Part shown: piece by piece, positions 29,132 to 60,910 of the stretch | How the letters are laid out: each line of letters begins with the position of its first letter | How positions within the stretch are numbered: the stretch's first letter is position 1 | Assembly: GCA_963813815.1 (NCBI GenBank) | Contig: CAWFAD010000016.1 | Span: forward strand, 384,001 to 448,000 | Direction: 5' to 3' | Length of the DNA stretch: 64,000 nt | Source of the DNA: an uncultured bacterium | GTDB taxonomy: Bacteria > Krumholzibacteriota > Krumholzibacteriia > Krumholzibacteriales > Krumholzibacteriaceae | Translations under genes and position numbers: made by a program | Notes under the pieces: model-generated | Database searches by the model: none | Told to the model about the DNA's origin: nothing | Seen by the model: the letters and a program-made list of their open reading frames with translations, nothing else

Positions 29132-29161
29132 TTGACAAAATGCCTAATTAGGAATTATAAT
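29132..29161 (+). promoter_or_regulatory. Consensus sigma70 promoter with palindrome in the spacer
   Basis: TTGACA (29132-37), 18 nt, TATAAT (29156-61); CCTAATTAGG at 29143-52; AT-rich intergenic region. Confidence 0.75.
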
Positions 29162-29233
29162 GATTAAAATCCAATACATGATTGTATATGGTTCTATGAG
29201 ATGTTCACTTCATTTAAACCAAGGAGGTCAATC

Positions 29234-29941
29234 GTGAAGCTATCGGCAATCGGGATGGGGGTACTGGCGGTCGTATTTTTGGCCGCGAGCGCATCGGCCA
29301 TATGTCTCAACTCGCCCAAGGACGGCATCTACACGACGACGAACGGCTCCATGATCGGCGGCCGCTCGTCGGAGGCGTGGTGCAGCGGAGTCGGTCCGGG
29401 CCAGCCCGGCAACACCGAGTCCGCCGCCTCATGGAACGGGTCGACGCTCGGCGGTCAGTGGAAGATCTGGGGAATGGCGATCGATGAGAACGGCGCGGTC
29501 GAGACCGCCCGCTGGTTCGACGCGTACGGCAACGGCTGGATCGATTACACGACGAACTACGTCGGCGGCGAGTTCTGGCTCGACGGCGACCATCTGTGGG
29601 GGACCGGCGCGGGCGATTTCAGCGGCACGGTGACGTACTTCAACGTTTCGGCCCGCGTGAGCTACTTCGGGGGGCAGCCCGTCGGCGTCACCTCGAACAT
29701 TTTCATGAGGGGTTCCTTCGCGGATTGCACGCACTGCGCGATCGAGTACGCGATTTCGAACGCGATGCTCGTCTGGCGGACCGGGTACGCGACGGCCATG
29801 CCGGCGAATTACCCCGCCTTCGAATGCGGCGCCGCCGCGGGCGAGCTTTTCGACGTGTGCTGCGCCACCGCGAAGATCTATTGCCAGCCCGTCGCAACGG
29901 AATCGAGCACGTGGGGGGGAATCAAGGCTCTCTACCGGTAA
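29234..29941 (+). CDS. Secreted Cys-rich hypothetical protein with C-terminal TWGGIKALYR tail
   Basis: SD AAGGAGG then GTG; signal peptide ending ASA; 8 Cys; own promoter and terminator. Confidence 0.85.
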   Translation: MKLSAIGMGVLAVVFLAASASAICLNSPKDGIYTTTNGSMIGGRSSEAWCSGVGPGQPGNTESAASWNGSTLGGQWKIWGMAIDENGAVETARWFDAYGNGWIDYTTNYVGGEFWLDGDHLWGTGAGDFSGTVTYFNVSARVSYFGGQPVGVTSNIFMRGSFADCTHCAIEYAISNAMLVWRTGYATAMPANYPAFECGAAAGELFDVCCATAKIYCQPVATESSTWGGIKALYR

Positions 29942-29966
29942 ATCCGGGGGTAGGCCAAGGTGCTGG

Positions 29967-29999
29967 GGGGCCGGCGCGCGTCGCCGGCCCCTTTTTTTT
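29967..29999 (+). terminator. Intrinsic terminator
   Basis: GGGGCCGGCG/CGCCGGCCCC stem followed by T8. Confidence 0.85.
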
Positions 30000-30160: not shown

Positions 30161-31525
30161 GTGCGAAGACTTCCGCTTGCCATGACCGCCGTGGCGCTCG
30201 TCGCGCTCGCCGCGATCCCCCCGATCGTCGCGCAGGTGCGCAAGGGCGGCGACGAGGCGCTCGGCCTCTACCGGTACGAGAGCTTCGAGCGTCCGGTCAC
30301 CTGCCGCCAGTGCCACGCCGATATCTACGAGCAATGGGCCCAGTCGATGATGGCGCAGGCGTACACGCATCATTGGGACGAGATAGAGTACTTCGAGCTC
30401 GCCCTGCCCCACGCCGGCAAGGATCCGAAGGTCGCGGGGGTGCGGGAGGGCTGCAACGGCTGCCACGCCCCGGTGTCATTCCTCGCCGGAGACGTGCCGC
30501 CGCCGCGCCCCTCGGCGGGGAGCCGCGCCAACGAGGCGGTGTCGTGCGATCTCTGCCACGTGATCGCGGAACGGACCGGCGACCCGTCGTTCAATTTCAA
30601 CTACGTCGTCGAGCCGGGACGCGTGAAACGCGGGAACCGCGACGGCGTCAAGAGTCCCTACCACGAGACGGTCCGGAACGATTTCACGAGGAGCGCGGAG
30701 TACTGCGGCACCTGCCACAACGAGCAGTCGCCGTACGGCGTATGGGTCAAGGCGACGCAGCTCGAGTGGAAGGAAGGCCCGTACGCGAAAGAGGGCGTTC
30801 CCTGCCACGTGTGCCACATGCCGCGCGCGCCGGGGCGCAGCGCGGTGACCGCGAGGGAGGAGCATCCGGACATCGCGCAGCACCTCTTCCACGGGGCGCA
30901 CGATCCGGGCAAGGTGCGCGGGGCGATCGAGCTCCGCATGCACCCGAGCGATCGGGAGATCGAGCCGGGAGACAGGATCGTCGTCACCGTGCAGGCCTTC
31001 AACGGCAAATGCGGCCACAAGGTGCCCTCGGGCTCCGCGGAGGAGCGCCAGCTGTGGCTCCGCGTGACCGCGGTCGACGCGGCGGGGAACGTGTACCATC
31101 TGCCCGTCGATCGCAAGGGCTTCGAGGGCGAGGCGGCGACGATCACGAGCAACGAGCTCGCCTACCAAGACATGGGGCTCATGATGGACGTTCCGGATTT
31201 TCCGGGGCTTCCGCGCGACTCGCTCCCCGAGGGGGATCGCATCTTCTGCCTGCCGTACTTCGATTCGCAGGGGCGCCGCACGATCGCGCAGTGGAACACC
31301 GCTTCGCAGGGGCCCGATTACCGCATCGGCCCGCGCGAGACGAAGATCGAGACGTACACGTGGACCGTTCCCGAGAGCGCCGCGATCGGAACGATGGTCG
31401 TGCGCGCCGAGATGAGCTACCGGCGCCTCGTGAAGTCGGTGGCGGACTATCTCAAGGTTCCCGCCGACGAAACCGAGATCATACGGGTCAACGACGCGCG
31501 GACGACGTTCGAGGTAGTCGACTGA
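30161..31525 (+). CDS. Periplasmic multiheme c-type cytochrome (5 CxxCH)
   Basis: Signal peptide; CRQCH, CNGCH, CDLCH, CGTCH, CHVCH; beta-rich C-terminal domain with GHKVPSG. Confidence 0.9.
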   Translation: MRRLPLAMTAVALVALAAIPPIVAQVRKGGDEALGLYRYESFERPVTCRQCHADIYEQWAQSMMAQAYTHHWDEIEYFELALPHAGKDPKVAGVREGCNGCHAPVSFLAGDVPPPRPSAGSRANEAVSCDLCHVIAERTGDPSFNFNYVVEPGRVKRGNRDGVKSPYHETVRNDFTRSAEYCGTCHNEQSPYGVWVKATQLEWKEGPYAKEGVPCHVCHMPRAPGRSAVTAREEHPDIAQHLFHGAHDPGKVRGAIELRMHPSDREIEPGDRIVVTVQAFNGKCGHKVPSGSAEERQLWLRVTAVDAAGNVYHLPVDRKGFEGEAATITSNELAYQDMGLMMDVPDFPGLPRDSLPEGDRIFCLPYFDSQGRRTIAQWNTASQGPDYRIGPRETKIETYTWTVPESAAIGTMVVRAEMSYRRLVKSVADYLKVPADETEIIRVNDARTTFEVVD

Positions 31526-31578
31526 TCCGCGGCGCGGGAGGGCGCCGCGGCGCAATCCCGGGAACGAAGGGGGAGACG

Positions 31579-32793
31579 ATGCTGATTCGAATGAACCTCT
31601 GGAAACGGGCGCTCGTCGCCGCCTCCGTCGCGGCGGCGACGATCCCGCTCGCGGCCGGCGAGTGCGGGGCCATCCCCGCGTTCGCCCGCAAGTACCGCAT
31701 GTCGTGCACGACGTGCCATGCGCCCGCGCCTCGTCTCAAGGCGTACGGAGAGGATTTCGCCGGGAACGGCTTCCGCCTCGAGGGGAAGGAGCCGACGCGC
31801 TACTACTTCGAGACCGGAGACAGCCTCCTGACGCTGGCGCGCGATCTCCCGGTCGCGATCCGCGTGGACGCCTACGCGACGTATACGTCCCGGGACGGGG
31901 CCGATCAGGCGGACCTCAAAACTCCGTACGGCATCAAGCTCATGGCCGGCGGAAACGTCGCGAAGAACATCTTCTATTACTTCTATTTCTTCATGTCTGA
32001 GCGGGGGGAGGTCGCCGGAATCGAGGACGCCTTCATCGGCTTCAACGATCTCTTCGGCGTCGATCTCGATCTCATGGTCGGCCAGTTTCAGGTCTCCGAT
32101 CCGCTCTTCAAACGCGAGCTCCGGCTCACGCTCGAGGATTACGAGATCTACCGGACCCGCGTCGGGGCCGCGCAGACCAACCTCACGTATGACCGCGGCC
32201 TCATGGCGGGCTACGCGACGCCGTTCGGAACGGATATTCTCGCGGAGATCGTGAACGGAAGCGGCATCGGAGCGTCGGACGAGTTCTTCGACGACGACGA
32301 CTGGAAGAACGTGTTCGTGCGCGTCTCGCATGCGGCGGGCCCCGCGCGCGTCGGCGCCTTCGGGTATCTCTGCAACGCGCACCTCCTCTCCGGTGCGGAG
32401 TATATCTCGAACGAGCACCGCTACTGGGGCGTGGACGCCACGATCGACGCCGGCTCGCGCCTGCAGATCAACGGGCAGTATCTCGAGCGCACGGACGACA
32501 ATCCGTACTTTCTTTCGACCGGCGCGGGTGGCACGAAGCTGCGGGGAGGGTTCGTCGAGGCGATCTGGGCCGTGCGGGGAGAGCTCGGGCGCACCTTCGT
32601 CACGTTCCTCTACAACGGCGTCGATTCCGACGTCGACGAGGTGTACGCCGGAGAGTCGCCGCTCGACTACCGCTCCGAGGCGCTCAATGTTTCGTATCTT
32701 TTGCGGAGGAATTTTCGTATCAGTACCGAGCTCCGGTATCGCGAAATCGAGGAAGAGTGGAACGTAGCGGCCGGTTTCACGGCCGCCTATTGA
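31579..32793 (+). CDS. Outer-membrane beta-barrel protein with N-terminal CxxCH
   Basis: Signal peptide, IPAFARKYRMSCTTCH, alternating amphipathic strands, terminal aromatic residue (FTAAY). Confidence 0.8.
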   Translation: MLIRMNLWKRALVAASVAAATIPLAAGECGAIPAFARKYRMSCTTCHAPAPRLKAYGEDFAGNGFRLEGKEPTRYYFETGDSLLTLARDLPVAIRVDAYATYTSRDGADQADLKTPYGIKLMAGGNVAKNIFYYFYFFMSERGEVAGIEDAFIGFNDLFGVDLDLMVGQFQVSDPLFKRELRLTLEDYEIYRTRVGAAQTNLTYDRGLMAGYATPFGTDILAEIVNGSGIGASDEFFDDDDWKNVFVRVSHAAGPARVGAFGYLCNAHLLSGAEYISNEHRYWGVDATIDAGSRLQINGQYLERTDDNPYFLSTGAGGTKLRGGFVEAIWAVRGELGRTFVTFLYNGVDSDVDEVYAGESPLDYRSEALNVSYLLRRNFRISTELRYREIEEEWNVAAGFTAAY

Positions 32794-57402: not shown

Positions 57403-58097
57403 GATCCTTCTCTCCCCCGGCGCGGCTCCGAGGACGGTGTTCCGCCGCCGATGCGGGCCGGCGTTATATCGATGTGAGGAGCGATCTCCCCGGCGAAGCG
57501 GACGAGCGCCCGCTCGGTCTCTTCGATGTTCCCGTTCGCCCCGATCTCCGTCGAAAAACGGACGAAGACGGTCGCCCGCGGCCGCCCGAGAAGCGAGCTC
57601 TTCATCTGACTCCATTTGAGCGCGAACTCGTCCGCGAGGACGCCGTCCGCCGCAAGATACCAGTATAGAACAAATTGCCGCTCGACGCCATTCGAGATGA
57701 GGAGCCTTCCGGCCCTCCAAGCGGCCCCTCCTGCGGCGACCGGGGACCTTCCCTCCTCGAGGATGTTCCAGCCCGATCCCGGGTAGCAGTGTTTGGGCGA
57801 ATGAATCTGGGAGTTCTCATGGGGCGCGGCGAAATACCCGATGAAGAGCCGTATCGGCGGCTCGCCGGCGCGGCGGTACGTGCGGACGAGCGTCGCGTCG
57901 GCTCCGAGAACGTCGAGCGTGTTTTCGTCGAGCGCCTCGTCGTCGGCCGCGTAGCCGGCGATCTCGGGGGGGATGCGCTCGAGCGCCGGGGGCGGCGGCG
58001 CCTCGACGCGGCGATAGCGCATCGTGAAGGTGTACGCGATGAGCGCCGCGAGTAGGGCGATTATCGCCGCGTACGCTGTTTTCTTCCCTGCAACCAT
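57399..58097 (-). CDS. epsI: EpsI family exosortase-associated protein
   Basis: N-terminal TM; LFIGYF, IHSPKHCYPGSGW, VLYWY, FVRFS. Confidence 0.88.
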   Translation of the reverse strand: MVAGKKTAYAAIIALLAALIAYTFTMRYRRVEAPPPPALERIPPEIAGYAADDEALDENTLDVLGADATLVRTYRRAGEPPIRLFIGYFAAPHENSQIHSPKHCYPGSGWNILEEGRSPVAAGGAAWRAGRLLISNGVERQFVLYWYLAADGVLADEFALKWSQMKSSLLGRPRATVFVRFSTEIGANGNIEETERALVRFAGEIAPHIDITPARIGGGTPSSEPRRGREGS

Positions 58098-58936
58098 GCG
58101 AGCGCGCTCCAGACGACGAGCAGCATGACGAAACCCGTGCCGAACACGATGAGCCCCGAGACTTCGTGAAGGACTCCGTCCGCGAAGGCCGGCCCGGCCA
58201 CGCGGGCTCCGACCGCGGTGAGCGCGAGCCGGATCGCATTGGCGGCGATCGCTATGGGGACGGAGGAAACGGCGAGAATCGCGCGGGCGCCCGCTGCGAG
58301 CCTCGATGCGGCGCAGAGAACGAGCGCGAGCGTCACGAGCGTCATGAGGGAGCGCAGCCCGCTGCACGCCGCGACCACCTCGAACGTATAGTCGGGGAGA
58401 ACGAGGATGTTGCCGCGGCGGATGACCTCGAACCCGATGCCGTGCAGCGCCCCGGCGGCGAGCTTCGCGCTCAGTATCTGCATCGGAAATGTGACCCGGT
58501 AATAGATGATGTAGGGGAGAGGGATCATCAGAAAGAGAAAGAGGAGCGGAAAGGCGAGGGCGCGGACGAACGCCGCGCCCCGCAGCAGAAGCAGAATCCC
58601 GATGAGCATGAGCGGGAGCGAGAGGCGCGCCGCGAAGAGCTCCGAGGCGGCCGTTCCCGCGACGAGAAGCGCGGCCGCGAGGGCGAGAATCATTGCTCCC
58701 GCCGCCGGGGCGCCCTCCCCGGCCGCCGAGCGGAGGATATCGCGTCTTCGCCAAAGGAAGTAGGCCGAGACGAACGGCACCGCGAGCCCGTGCTGGTAGT
58801 TCGGGTCGAGAACGAGCTGCCTCGCGAGCGGAACGAGCACGGGAAGGTAGAGCGCGACAAAAAGCGCCGCCACAACGAACGCCGCGGCGCCCGGCTTCGC
58901 GGGCGGCCCGGCCATCTCTCTCGCTGCTCCGCGCAT
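58061..58936 (-). CDS. xrt: Exosortase (EpsH family)
   Basis: YQHG, FLFLMIPLP, VVAACSGLRSL (Cys), NAIR (Arg), LHE (His); multiple TM helices. Confidence 0.92.
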   Translation of the reverse strand: MRGAAREMAGPPAKPGAAAFVVAALFVALYLPVLVPLARQLVLDPNYQHGLAVPFVSAYFLWRRRDILRSAAGEGAPAAGAMILALAAALLVAGTAASELFAARLSLPLMLIGILLLLRGAAFVRALAFPLLFLFLMIPLPYIIYYRVTFPMQILSAKLAAGALHGIGFEVIRRGNILVLPDYTFEVVAACSGLRSLMTLVTLALVLCAASRLAAGARAILAVSSVPIAIAANAIRLALTAVGARVAGPAFADGVLHEVSGLIVFGTGFVMLLVVWSALAWLQGRKQRTRR

Positions 58937-59080: not shown

Positions 59081-59791
59081 TTACTCCTTTTTCCTCCTCA
59101 GTATGGGGACCATGCCGAGGAGTCCGAGACCGAGAAGGCTCAACGTGCCCGGCTCGGGGACCGCGCCGTAGTAGGAAGCGTCGCGCGAGTAGGCGTTCAC
59201 GTACGTCTCGCCGTTCGCGTCGATCCCCACCGCGTCGAAGTGAACCCAATCATAACCGCTCACGATGACGTTGACAAGGATTTCGTCGCCCCACCCGGGG
59301 GTATTGATCGTGCCGTGCGCGTAGTTCAGCGCGTTTACCTGATCGTTGTCGACGCGGCCGAGCTCATAGAACTTGAAGGCTCCCGCGTCGCCGGCCGGCG
59401 AATGGTACTGCAGGGACGGGTTCGCCTGAATGGCGCTCGGAACCGCCGCGCCATACACGTCGAAGCTCAGTATCTCTATGCCGTTGATGTAAATGTTTCC
59501 GCTCTGCCCCTCGGGCGTCGCGATCATGAGCCAGGTGTCGAGATACTCGTAAACCGGCTCGCCCCTGAAGGTGAGAGATCCCCCGCCTTCGCCGCTCGCC
59601 GGATTCCAGTACCCCACTACCTTGAGATCGAAGGTCGAGTTGTGCGTGACCCAGGTCGCATACTCCCGCTGATAAATATGGTAGTAGTCCGAGCCCGTAA
59701 TGTAGGTCTGAAGCCTCGGCACCGATCCCGCGGATACGGCGAGGAGCATTGCGATCGTCATTGTAACTGTCAGTTTAGCAATCGGTTTCAT
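59081..59791 (-). CDS. PEP-CTERM sorting-domain protein (body resembles choice-of-anchor N)
   Basis: Signal peptide; C-terminal VPEPGTLSLLGLGLLGMVPILRRKKE; LQTYI..., WVHFDA, YSRDA. Confidence 0.92.
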   Translation of the reverse strand: MKPIAKLTVTMTIAMLLAVSAGSVPRLQTYITGSDYYHIYQREYATWVTHNSTFDLKVVGYWNPASGEGGGSLTFRGEPVYEYLDTWLMIATPEGQSGNIYINGIEILSFDVYGAAVPSAIQANPSLQYHSPAGDAGAFKFYELGRVDNDQVNALNYAHGTINTPGWGDEILVNVIVSGYDWVHFDAVGIDANGETYVNAYSRDASYYGAVPEPGTLSLLGLGLLGMVPILRRKKE

Positions 59792-60131: not shown

Positions 60132-60160
60132 TTGAAATTCCAATTTGGATTTGTTATAAT
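60132..60160 (+). promoter_or_regulatory. Sigma70 promoter with extended -10
   Basis: TTGAAA (60132-37), 17 nt, TATAAT (60155-60) preceded by TGn; spacer contains TCCAA-T-TTGGA. Confidence 0.75.
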
Positions 60161-60349: not shown

Positions 60350-60910
60350 ATGAAAGCTGCGACTATCGTTCTCTTGATTCTTCTCGCGCCGGTCGCTTTG
60401 TTCGCGGCGCCGACGATCGGGGTCTACGCAAACAACTCGACGAGCCTCATGATGTTCGGGCCCCCTCCGTACTCGACGTTCACCGGCTACGTTTTCGGCG
60501 TGGGGCTCAATTGCTTCACGAACGCCGTCGAGTTCGCCGTCCAGCTTCCCGAGGGAATCGTCATGACCGGATGGTCGATCCCGTACGAGAACTCCCTCAC
60601 GCTCGGCGATCCTCTGGCGGGCCTCGCGGTCACGTACTGGCCGCCTCTCAGCACCTTCGATCCGGGCTATAACCTGCTCGCGCAGATTCAGCTCATGGCG
60701 CTGCCGACCGGCGCGTGCCTGTACTACGGCGGCACGAGCCCCTTCAACGCTCCCCTGCGGATCGTGAATCATCCCGGCAGCGGAGCTCTTCGCCAGTCGT
60801 GCTGGCCGGATAACAACCTCGTCAACCTGACCGGGCTCGTCTCGATCATCTGTCCCGAGGAGATCGCGACGGAGGAAACGAGCTGGGGCGCGATCAAGTC
60901 CCTGTTCTAG
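60350..60910 (+). CDS. Secreted hypothetical protein with C-terminal SWGAIKSLF tail
   Basis: SD AAAGGAG; signal peptide; 4 Cys; followed by a hairpin. Confidence 0.85.
   Translation: MKAATIVLLILLAPVALFAAPTIGVYANNSTSLMMFGPPPYSTFTGYVFGVGLNCFTNAVEFAVQLPEGIVMTGWSIPYENSLTLGDPLAGLAVTYWPPLSTFDPGYNLLAQIQLMALPTGACLYYGGTSPFNAPLRIVNHPGSGALRQSCWPDNNLVNLTGLVSIICPEEIATEETSWGAIKSLF

Follow-up and report, generated by a model that had tools for sequence, protein, structure and literature searches.

A short C-terminal tail shared by unrelated exported proteins of an uncultured bacterium and its relatives: a candidate envelope address tag

We describe here a short C-terminal tail that recurs on otherwise unrelated exported proteins, beginning with two genes that lie in a single stretch of DNA. 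This window, by which we mean the whole analysed stretch of 64,000 nucleotides (G000:C16:384001-448000), belongs to an assembly of 2,531,083 bases in 16 contigs (G000), and the two genes, designated T19 and T20 (Table 1), are open reading frames (ORFs) whose products share one ending, namely YCQPVATESSTWGGIKALYR in T19 and ICPEEIATEETSWGAIKSLF in T20, each directly followed by the stop codon. The initial annotation of this DNA had singled out positions 29888-29941, which are the last 17 codons and the stop codon of T19, as a candidate sorting signal, and its description of the two proteins was borne out: both begin with a Sec signal peptide (judged by eye; that of T19 forms an N-terminal helix in the AlphaFold2 model), both contain several cysteines (eight in T19, four in T20), and BLASTP finds no similarity between them once signal peptide and tail are removed. 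The shared end is likewise not a transmembrane segment, since it has no hydrophobic span and is predicted to form a short amphipathic helix joined to a flexible linker. Taken together with the genome-scale evidence given below, the tail is a real, modular and strongly selected C-terminal tag on exported proteins, and it is unpublished as far as we searched: no paper with the motif strings or with a description of the tail was found, queries joining the phylum with type IX secretion systems (T9SS), or sorting signals with PorU or the Fibrobacterota-Chlorobiota-Bacteroidota (FCB) group, returned nothing relevant, and the name "PorU2" appeared in one paper, which does not concern this tail.

Searches of T19 and T20 against Pfam and NCBIfam gave no family for either protein at E≤1. 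T19 is counted in Table 1 from its first ATG; its true start is probably the GTG at 29234, which gives a protein of 235 aa, because the homologues are about 235 aa long and begin at the position of residue 12. This residue, M12, is nearly invariant in the alignment of 103 homologues of about 235 aa (alignment A2). No terminator was found downstream of T20 in a scan of the locus.

Table 1. Features at the T19 and T20 loci, in window coordinates.
Feature	Position	Strand	Basis or remark
Sigma-70-type promoter-like site upstream of T19	29132..29161	+	TTGACA-18-TATAAT, 12/12; consensus match only
T19, family B tail protein	29201..29941	+	ORF; 246 aa counted from first ATG
T19 Sec signal peptide (..AASASA / ICLN)	29234..29299	+	Basic n-region, hydrophobic core, ASA cleavage motif; read by eye
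T19 beta-sandwich domain, residues 42-227 of the 246-aa ORF, fold family unknown	29324..29881	+	AlphaFold2 model
T19 tail: Cys, linker QPVATESST, then helix WGGIKALY(R)	29882..29938	+	Profile hidden Markov model match 0 residues from stop
Terminator-like hairpin and T run 3' of T19	29965..29993	+	12-pair stem, 10 GC pairs, then TTTTTT
Promoter-like site upstream of T20	60132..60160	+	TTGAAA-17-TATAAT, 11/12, extended TG; consensus match only
T20, family A (cohesin-like) tail protein, 186 aa	60350..60910	+	ORF
T20 Sec signal peptide (..PVALFA / APTIGVY)	60350..60406	+	Read by eye; helix 2-17 in model
T20 cohesin-like beta-sandwich, residues 22-167	60413..60850	+	AlphaFold2 and Foldseek
T20 tail: ICPEEIATEE linker, then helix TSWGAIKSLF	60851..60907	+	Profile hidden Markov model match 0 residues from stop

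A profile hidden Markov model (HMM) built from 14 tails was run on all six frames of G000, cut from stop to stop into 45,268 segments of 20 aa or longer, and at E≤0.01 it matched 22 ORFs, every match lying 0-3 residues before a stop; internal matches were absent from these segments, and in this genome the tag is thus found at the C-terminus only. Our own gene finder had missed 7 of the 22 tail ORFs, and all counts are therefore taken from six-frame scans. A pattern search of the 19,550 stop-to-stop ORFs with a length of 60 aa or more returned 21 tails. Twenty-one of the 22 HMM-matched ORFs are intact and begin with a signal peptide (21/21 by eye), and a crude signal-peptide rule recognized 20 of these 21 as compared with 337 of 2,091 (16%) in the roughly called proteome, its sole miss being T15, whose signal peptide is obvious by eye. 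The tag is therefore carried by exported and not by cytoplasmic proteins. The remaining ORF, T07 (C9:18776-18973, minus strand), represents the 3' part of a T06 copy that a frameshift has split; the copy lies between T06 and a C25 peptidase gene described below, and at this locus (L005, G000:C9, 4776-5196, minus strand) its N-terminal part forms an ORF of about 130 aa and its tail-bearing part one of 65 aa.

The 22 ORFs fall into nine families that are unrelated by BLASTP, which rules out confinement to one homologous family. Family A comprises T03, T05, T06, T11, T12, T16, T17 and T20 together with the fragment T07, family B comprises T04, T19 and T21, two further families are formed by T02 with T13 and by T08 with T10 and T15, and five ORFs are singletons. 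Known domains were recognized only in T01 (Temptin_C or dihaem-like, haem-c-type) and in T02 and T13 (beta-helix, NosD-like). Tail proteins are small, with lengths of 135-327 aa and a median of 193 aa. A tandem array of family A tail genes, T16-T12-T11, is followed by a gene for an M2/M3-like metallopeptidase of 566 aa (L002:6498-8195; G000:C10:120498-122195).

The tails of these families conform to one consensus, [C]-x-[VI]-[AG]-[TV]-[ED]-x-[ST]-[ST]-W-G-x-[IV]-K-x-[LM]-[YF]-(R), in which W, G and K are invariant (alignment A1). Invariant columns of the family A alignment include W170, G171, A172 and K174, those of the T20 alignment W179, G180 and K183, and judged from such alignments the tail is the most conserved part of each family. 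At residue-identical tail positions the codons differ in 889 of 1,755 pairwise comparisons (51%), and the mean nucleotide identity across the 48-nt tail core is 61%; therefore selection acts on the peptide, and the tail is not a DNA repeat. In two pairs, T02/T13 and T06/T07, the tails are near-identical in DNA, and each pair consists of recent paralogues. The idea that the shared end does nothing at the protein level and is due to coincidence, to a repeat in the DNA or to gene conversion has, in our estimate, a negligible probability, given the codon differences, the 22 frame-specific, stop-adjacent matches among 45,268 segments and the presence of the tail in every one of the 201 phylum genomes considered below.

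For both window proteins, structure prediction gave a confident beta-sandwich and, after it, a linker and short helix of low confidence. The AlphaFold2 model of T19 (82 sequences) has a mean predicted local distance difference test score (pLDDT) of 91.8 and places a coil (residues 228-237) and a helix (238-245) after the sandwich, with a pLDDT of 61-62 in the tail block; that of T20 (66 sequences; pLDDT 91.4) places a coil at 168-175 and a helix at 176-185, with 59-67 in the tail block. The T19 model has no match in the PDB at E≤0.001 by Foldseek, while the top matches of T20 are cohesin modules (2vo8, TM-score 0.70; 2jh2, TM-score 0.73; 92 matches at E≤0.001). In the models, then, the same detached linker and short helix are carried by two different folds. 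The predicted anatomy is a domain with, as a rule, a Cys at its end, then a linker that is flexible and conserved, [VI]-[AG]-[TV]-[ED]-x-[ST]-[ST], and a basic amphipathic helix, W-G-x-[IV]-K-x-[LM]-[YF]-R, which as modelled does not pack on the folded domain.

The helical moment of the tail is 1.2-1.6 at 100 degrees versus 0.45-0.87 at 170 degrees, and such amphipathicity raises the question of whether the tail might be an in-plane anchor whose basic helix binds membrane lipid or lipopolysaccharide (LPS) directly, with no machinery involved. Sec export alone would suffice for such an anchor, the helix offers the interfacial residues W, Y/F, K and R, the tandem copies described below would raise affinity, and a clade-wide shift to the more basic WGKIKxR[YF]R could track a change in envelope lipid. 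Even so, we consider this quite unlikely: the helix has just 8-10 residues, the invariant W, G and K together with the conserved non-helical linker [VI]-[AG]-T-E-x-S-[ST] look much stricter than we would expect of lipid-binding helices, and the synteny with the C25 peptidase gene would be left unexplained.

The tail is anything but rare. At E≤0.01, the 22-column profile A1 matched all 201 sampled genomes of the window's phylum, with 1-41 matches each, including all 125 high-quality genomes. A degenerate DNA pattern for ..[DE]-x-[ST]-[ST]-W-G-x-I-K-x-L-[YF]-R-stop, scanned over species-representative genomes, hit at least 127 stretches; among the matches listed, all are from uncultured bins labelled Eisenbacteria, Krumholzibacteria, Latescibacteria or simply "bacterium", with Zixibacteria (1), Gemmatimonadota (2 bins), Melioribacteraceae (1) and Fibrobacteraceae (1) as rarer labels. 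These submitter labels are unreliable, as the "Fibrobacteraceae" bin and one "Latescibacterota" bin share match coordinates with two genomes of the window's phylum (G014 and G108). Against 1.84 billion cluster representatives, a 30-column tail profile found 361 proteins at a library-wide E≤0.001; in all of the best 150 of these 361 (150/150) the final tail core is found 3-8 residues before the protein ends, and the full-looking representatives among them have a median length of 189 aa. A search of the ESM Atlas with the tail alone as query gave scores of 0.76-0.81, which we treat as a lead only. Within the families, the tail or a close variant is present on 101 of 103 homologues of T19, the other two being truncated or frameshifted, and the tail or a variant ending is present on 63 of 63 homologues of T20 (homologues were taken within a length window of 0.55-1.75x).

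One genome labelled Gemmatimonadaceae, G204 (L141/L142, contigs C86 and C15), encodes several paralogous proteins that end in ..GSSWGAIKSLFR, and one neighbouring copy reads past the motif (..VSWGAIKHRSP). Its tail contigs are 9.6 and 3.5 kb long, its largest tail ORF is 679 aa, and it may be misbinned. Beside the tail genes of G204 and of two further genomes, G202 and G205, no obvious machinery was seen on what are short contigs.

The termini themselves are informative about what might be recognized. Between 0 and 8 variable residues follow the motif (F, YR, FTE, YSE, MMD, INE and others), and it is therefore not the free C-terminus as such that is recognized. Such variability speaks against a degradation or regulatory tag that a periplasmic C-terminal-processing or PDZ-domain protease or sensor would read to control turnover, a reading that we regard as highly improbable. 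The tail is C-terminal and partly hydrophobic, as such a tag might be, and the M3-like peptidase gene after the T16-T12-T11 array would be in keeping with it, but the last residues vary widely, against PDZ or Prc-type recognition of a C-terminus, nearly all homologues have retained the tail despite long divergence, and no S41 or PDZ gene lies beside the annotated tail genes.

Multiple copies also occur. Among the best 150 of the 361 representatives, one protein has four tails in tandem, one has three and one has two, and four proteins of about 400 aa resemble two joined units of domain plus tail, the first tail being internal (the tandem- or two-unit representatives are P0195, P0271, P0180, P0205, P0210, P0216 and P0297). 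Such tandem and internal copies are easier to reconcile with a docking helix, or with cleavage at every tail, than with a signal that is used only once. On the docking reading, the tail would be a non-covalent peptide whose helix plugs into a receptor and is never cleaved, so that many small proteins are tethered to one scaffold; dockerins, which bind cohesins, and the peroxisomal targeting signal PTS1, which binds the tetratricopeptide repeat (TPR) receptor PEX5, provide parallels. We regard this as the main rival reading, possible if rather unlikely. Two to four tandem tails and two-unit proteins suggest avidity, and tandem copies fit a docking motif at least as well as they fit cleavage by a C25 peptidase; extra residues after the motif are consistent with a free carboxylate that is not read; both models predict a short helix on a flexible linker; and the largest tail family is cohesin-like. 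The receptor, however, would still be a hypothetical candidate, whether cohesin-like family A modules, the TPR protein g0312 or a PorV-like barrel, and the protein adjoining the cohesin-like genes has no Pfam family even at E≤5.

The TPR protein g0312 (L004:6811-10458; G000:C7:100811-104458; 1,216 aa) directly follows T03 and T04, and its repeats are YbgF-like, BamD-like and weakly PorW-like. Among 30 orthologous loci from several genera, a tail gene, mostly of the family B type, lies within 1.5 kb upstream in 13, and three further loci are cut by contig ends. This arrangement would suit docking to a TPR receptor, but TPR proteins are abundant in G000 and the synteny is present in only about half of the loci. 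An identification of g0312 as PorW/SprE (NF052312) was discarded, the matches being to generic TPR models only. Two of the orthologues contain in-frame stops, one TGA in L184 (G032) and one TAA in L207 (G064).

The tail also exists in lineage-specific versions. Twelve tails from G228, G231, G237 and G317, genomes labelled Eisenbacteria in which the tail HMM had no match and a DNA pattern and the ORFs showed the tails, are found on at least five BLAST-unrelated families and share the consensus P-V-x-T-T-T-W-G-K-I-K-x-R-[YF]-R. Position +2 is K in 10 of these 12 tails versus 0 of 22 in G000, and position +6 is R in 7 of the 12, with L in 17 of the 22 G000 tails. In G093, which represents another family of the window's phylum, V occupies position +3 in 12 of the 20 best tails (I in 20 of 22 in G000) and N occupies position -5 in 7 of these 20 (T in 15 of 22 in G000). 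Unrelated proteins of one genome thus share their lineage's own version of the tag, a pattern that, from these alignments, is best described as concerted evolution, and such a concerted tag on unrelated families speaks for a single reader or a single target that they share. The same drift would fit co-evolution with any single receptor, and hence docking as well. Small cytochromes recur among the tail proteins of different genomes: T01 is one in G000, and of two adjacent paralogues with a variant tail in G228 (L211 and L212, contig C39) one has a CxxCH haem-c motif (CVTCH).

A candidate for the common reader lies next to some of the tail genes. G000 encodes a T9SS, with PorU at C13:399-3701 (543.5 bits against a cut-off of 420), an adjoining PorV-like barrel (126 bits, below the cut-off of 250) and SprA at C7:73801-77997; SprA also scores above its cut-off in five of five other tail-bearing genomes, whose kinship to G000 is not given. 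Separate from this PorU, the gene g0816 (C9:14539-18585; 1,349 aa) encodes a protein with a Peptidase_C25 domain (E=3.8e-61) and a type-A C-terminal domain (CTD) of its own (FlgD_ig). It scores 163 bits on the PorU model, below the cut-off of 420, and is therefore a paralogue rather than a canonical PorU, its best relative in the PDB by sequence being Porphyromonas gingivalis PorU (6za2, E=1e-13). G880-H881 and G916-C917-H918 are invariant in 26 orthologues. At E≤1e-20, orthologues were found in 194 of 201 phylum genomes and in 125 of 125 high-quality ones, and the canonical PorU of G000 was not matched by this search. The genomic association with tail genes is conserved: in 24 of the 30 best loci, 1-2 tail ORFs lie within 1.5 kb upstream of the C25 paralogue on the same strand, in the remaining six the sequence upstream breaks off at the end of the contig, and G201 has the same arrangement. 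PorU2 (NF052324) was considered as well and had no match above cut-off in G000.

The initial annotation had suggested a secretion, anchoring or assembly tag, and a role of this general kind is what we infer from the sequence data. More specifically, we propose that the tail is a modular C-terminal address tag of about 17-20 residues, carried by small, Sec-exported, Cys-containing single-domain proteins and read in trans for retention at or attachment to the envelope, a proposal to which we would give an even chance. Tail proteins would be exported by Sec; in each organism, one common envelope factor would then read the tag in trans and retain or attach its bearers at the cell envelope or surface, and this route would run parallel to, and exclusive of, the one in which large T9SS cargo uses the immunoglobulin (Ig)-like type-A CTD. 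Whether the C25 paralogue g0816 is the reader is more doubtful, and we name it only tentatively, as the leading candidate. PorU is described as cleaving the C-terminal signal of its substrates and swapping in anionic LPS (A-LPS; PMC12365241). By analogy with this sortase, g0816 could recognize the helix and cut in the linker. It is unlikely, in our view, that the tail goes as far as to be the signal of a second, CTD-independent, T9SS-related branch of surface attachment, in which a PorU-paralogue cysteine transpeptidase would recognize a linear tag of about 17 residues.

Several observations weigh against the envelope-address proposal or against the C25 paralogue as its reader. Tandem tails, in four, three and two copies, and internal tails are not what one would usually see in a signal with a single cleavage. 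The tail is kept in 63 of 63 family A and 101 of 103 family B homologues, and interchange with other anchors is rare. The tail genes that neighbour the C25 paralogue belong mostly to one cohesin-like family, and the synteny may thus reflect a partnership with that family. In a second phylum (that of G207, labelled Eisenbacteria), the tail HMM matches 99 of 121 genomes, and C25 matches occur in 121 of 121, usually three per genome, with or without a tail HMM match (both tallies include one unpublished genome, G224). Four of the HMM-negative genomes have full-length g0816 orthologues (E of 1e-45 to 1e-74) and carry diverged tails; therefore the HMM misses tails there, and the profile of the second phylum is uninformative either way. 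Three genomes with 1-2 tail matches each (G202, G204 and G205) have no full-length orthologue of the C25 paralogue; the contigs that bear these tails are short and may result from misbinning. Finally, the CTD of the C25 paralogue implies an extracellular site for the enzyme, and no signal is known that would take the tail proteins across the outer membrane.

C-terminal sorting signals have repeatedly led to envelope machinery, as for sortases, exosortases and the T9SS. The tag described here is on about 1% of the genes in every sampled genome of a candidate phylum and extends to neighbouring phyla, yet neither Pfam nor NCBIfam has a model for it. With a curated tail model, annotators could mark out a whole class of proteins of the envelope or surface in uncultured bacteria from sediment and groundwater, among them cohesin-like modules, beta-helix proteins and small cytochromes. 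The tag is also a handle for finding its reader, either as a peptide bait or by using the lineage variants as a signal of co-evolution. Should the reader be the PorU paralogue, the FCB group would use attachment of the sortase type for more than proteins with the Ig-like CTD; and if the second branch of attachment existed, dozens of small proteins would be fixed to the surface of Krumholzibacteriota-, Eisenbacteria- and Latescibacteria-type bacteria, where attached cohesin-like modules could form a cellulosome-like scaffold.

The surroundings of the two window genes are of interest in their own right. Directly 3' of T19, positions 30182-32790 (plus strand) encode a multihaem cytochrome of 447 aa, which matches Cytochrome_C7 and C554 and has an MtrC/MtrF-like domain match below cut-off, followed by a 400-aa protein with a signal peptide, which ends in ..AAGFTAAY, is without a family match and could be an outer-membrane partner. 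T20 is adjoined by an exosortase EpsH gene (58064..58915, minus strand; PF09721, E=2.7e-64) and by a "choice-of-anchor N" PEP-CTERM protein (59081..59791, minus strand; NF038141, 67.7 bits; PF07589, 27.4 bits). Because a PEP-CTERM protein and an exosortase lie in the window, the organism runs at least three C-terminal sorting systems, that is, PEP-CTERM, the type-A CTD and the tail.

Compared with PEP-CTERM/exosortase, LPXTG/sortase, GlyGly-CTERM and MYXO-CTERM, the tail is likewise a brief signature that many unrelated exported proteins of one organism carry at their very C-terminal end, and likewise lineage-specific. Those signals, however, consist of a motif, a transmembrane helix and a basic cluster that a membrane enzyme reads, whereas the tail lacks a hydrophobic span, and an exosortase neighbourhood is seen at only one tail locus (T20). 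Read directly, the 22 tails contain no LPXTG-like motif, hydrophobic span or basic tail, and T19 and T20 match neither PEP-CTERM model (TIGR02595, PF07589), whereas the PEP-CTERM protein of the window, serving as control, reaches 27.4 bits against a cut-off of 20.7. Two other kinds of C-terminal signal were considered and rejected: an outer-membrane-protein beta-signal, given the helix modelled after a soluble sandwich, the 0-8 variable residues after the motif and the Cys-rich proteins, and a type 1 secretion signal, given the N-terminal Sec signal peptide of all 21 intact tail proteins.

Escherichia coli PBP5 and PBP6 have C-terminal amphipathic helices that bind the membrane surface directly. 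They resemble the tail proteins in having a Sec-exported soluble domain and a C-terminal amphipathic helix, predicted in the case of the tail, with no transmembrane segment, and, were the tail to bind membrane on its own, in needing no dedicated machinery, but the tail helix is about half as long, has invariant residues and is joined to a linker that is conserved across unrelated families and phyla. Cohesin-dockerin systems with an anchoring scaffoldin offer another likeness, in that family A, T20 included, has a cohesin-like fold ending in a putative anchoring tag. The hosts here are instead Gram-negative members of the FCB group, the tag is not LPXTG, no tail protein matches the dockerin model (PF00404), and a dockerin identity of the neighbouring proteins (g0819 and the corresponding ORF in G201) was rejected, as these have 0 Pfam families at E≤5.

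The closest comparison is with the type-A CTD of the T9SS. G000 encodes 23 FlgD-like type-A CTD proteins by pattern and 29 by model match, and the initial annotation was right to set the tail apart from them, as it was for PEP-CTERM: neither T19 and T20 (E≤1) nor 18 other tails (E≤0.5) match the CTD models (TIGR04183, PF18962, FlgD_ig) or any other model of Pfam or NCBIfam, and the idea that the tail is a fragment of a type-A CTD was rejected, the hhalign probability against the 23 CTDs of G000 being 0.1%. The two tags differ in build, the CTD being Ig-like and about 70-100 residues long and the tail about 17-20 residues, a linker with a helix of 8-10, and also in their carriers, which are large for the CTD (a median of 861 aa, stop-to-stop) and small for the tail. 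The interchange with FlgD-type CTDs that the initial annotation had asked about was seen in one case only, a 494-aa protein (G000:C8:~100,730-102,145) whose signal peptide and cohesin-like domain of family A are followed, at the point where T06 has its tail, by roughly 200 more residues and then a type-A CTD; no change of anchor was found among the 63 family A and 103 family B homologues, all within the 0.55-1.75x length window. What the tail and the CTD have in common is that both are C-terminal tags on Sec-exported proteins of the FCB group, that they co-occur in the same genomes, that they are mutually exclusive on any one protein (no ORF in G000 has both, and one family A paralogue has the CTD instead), and that a PorU paralogue is the conserved neighbour of the tail genes.

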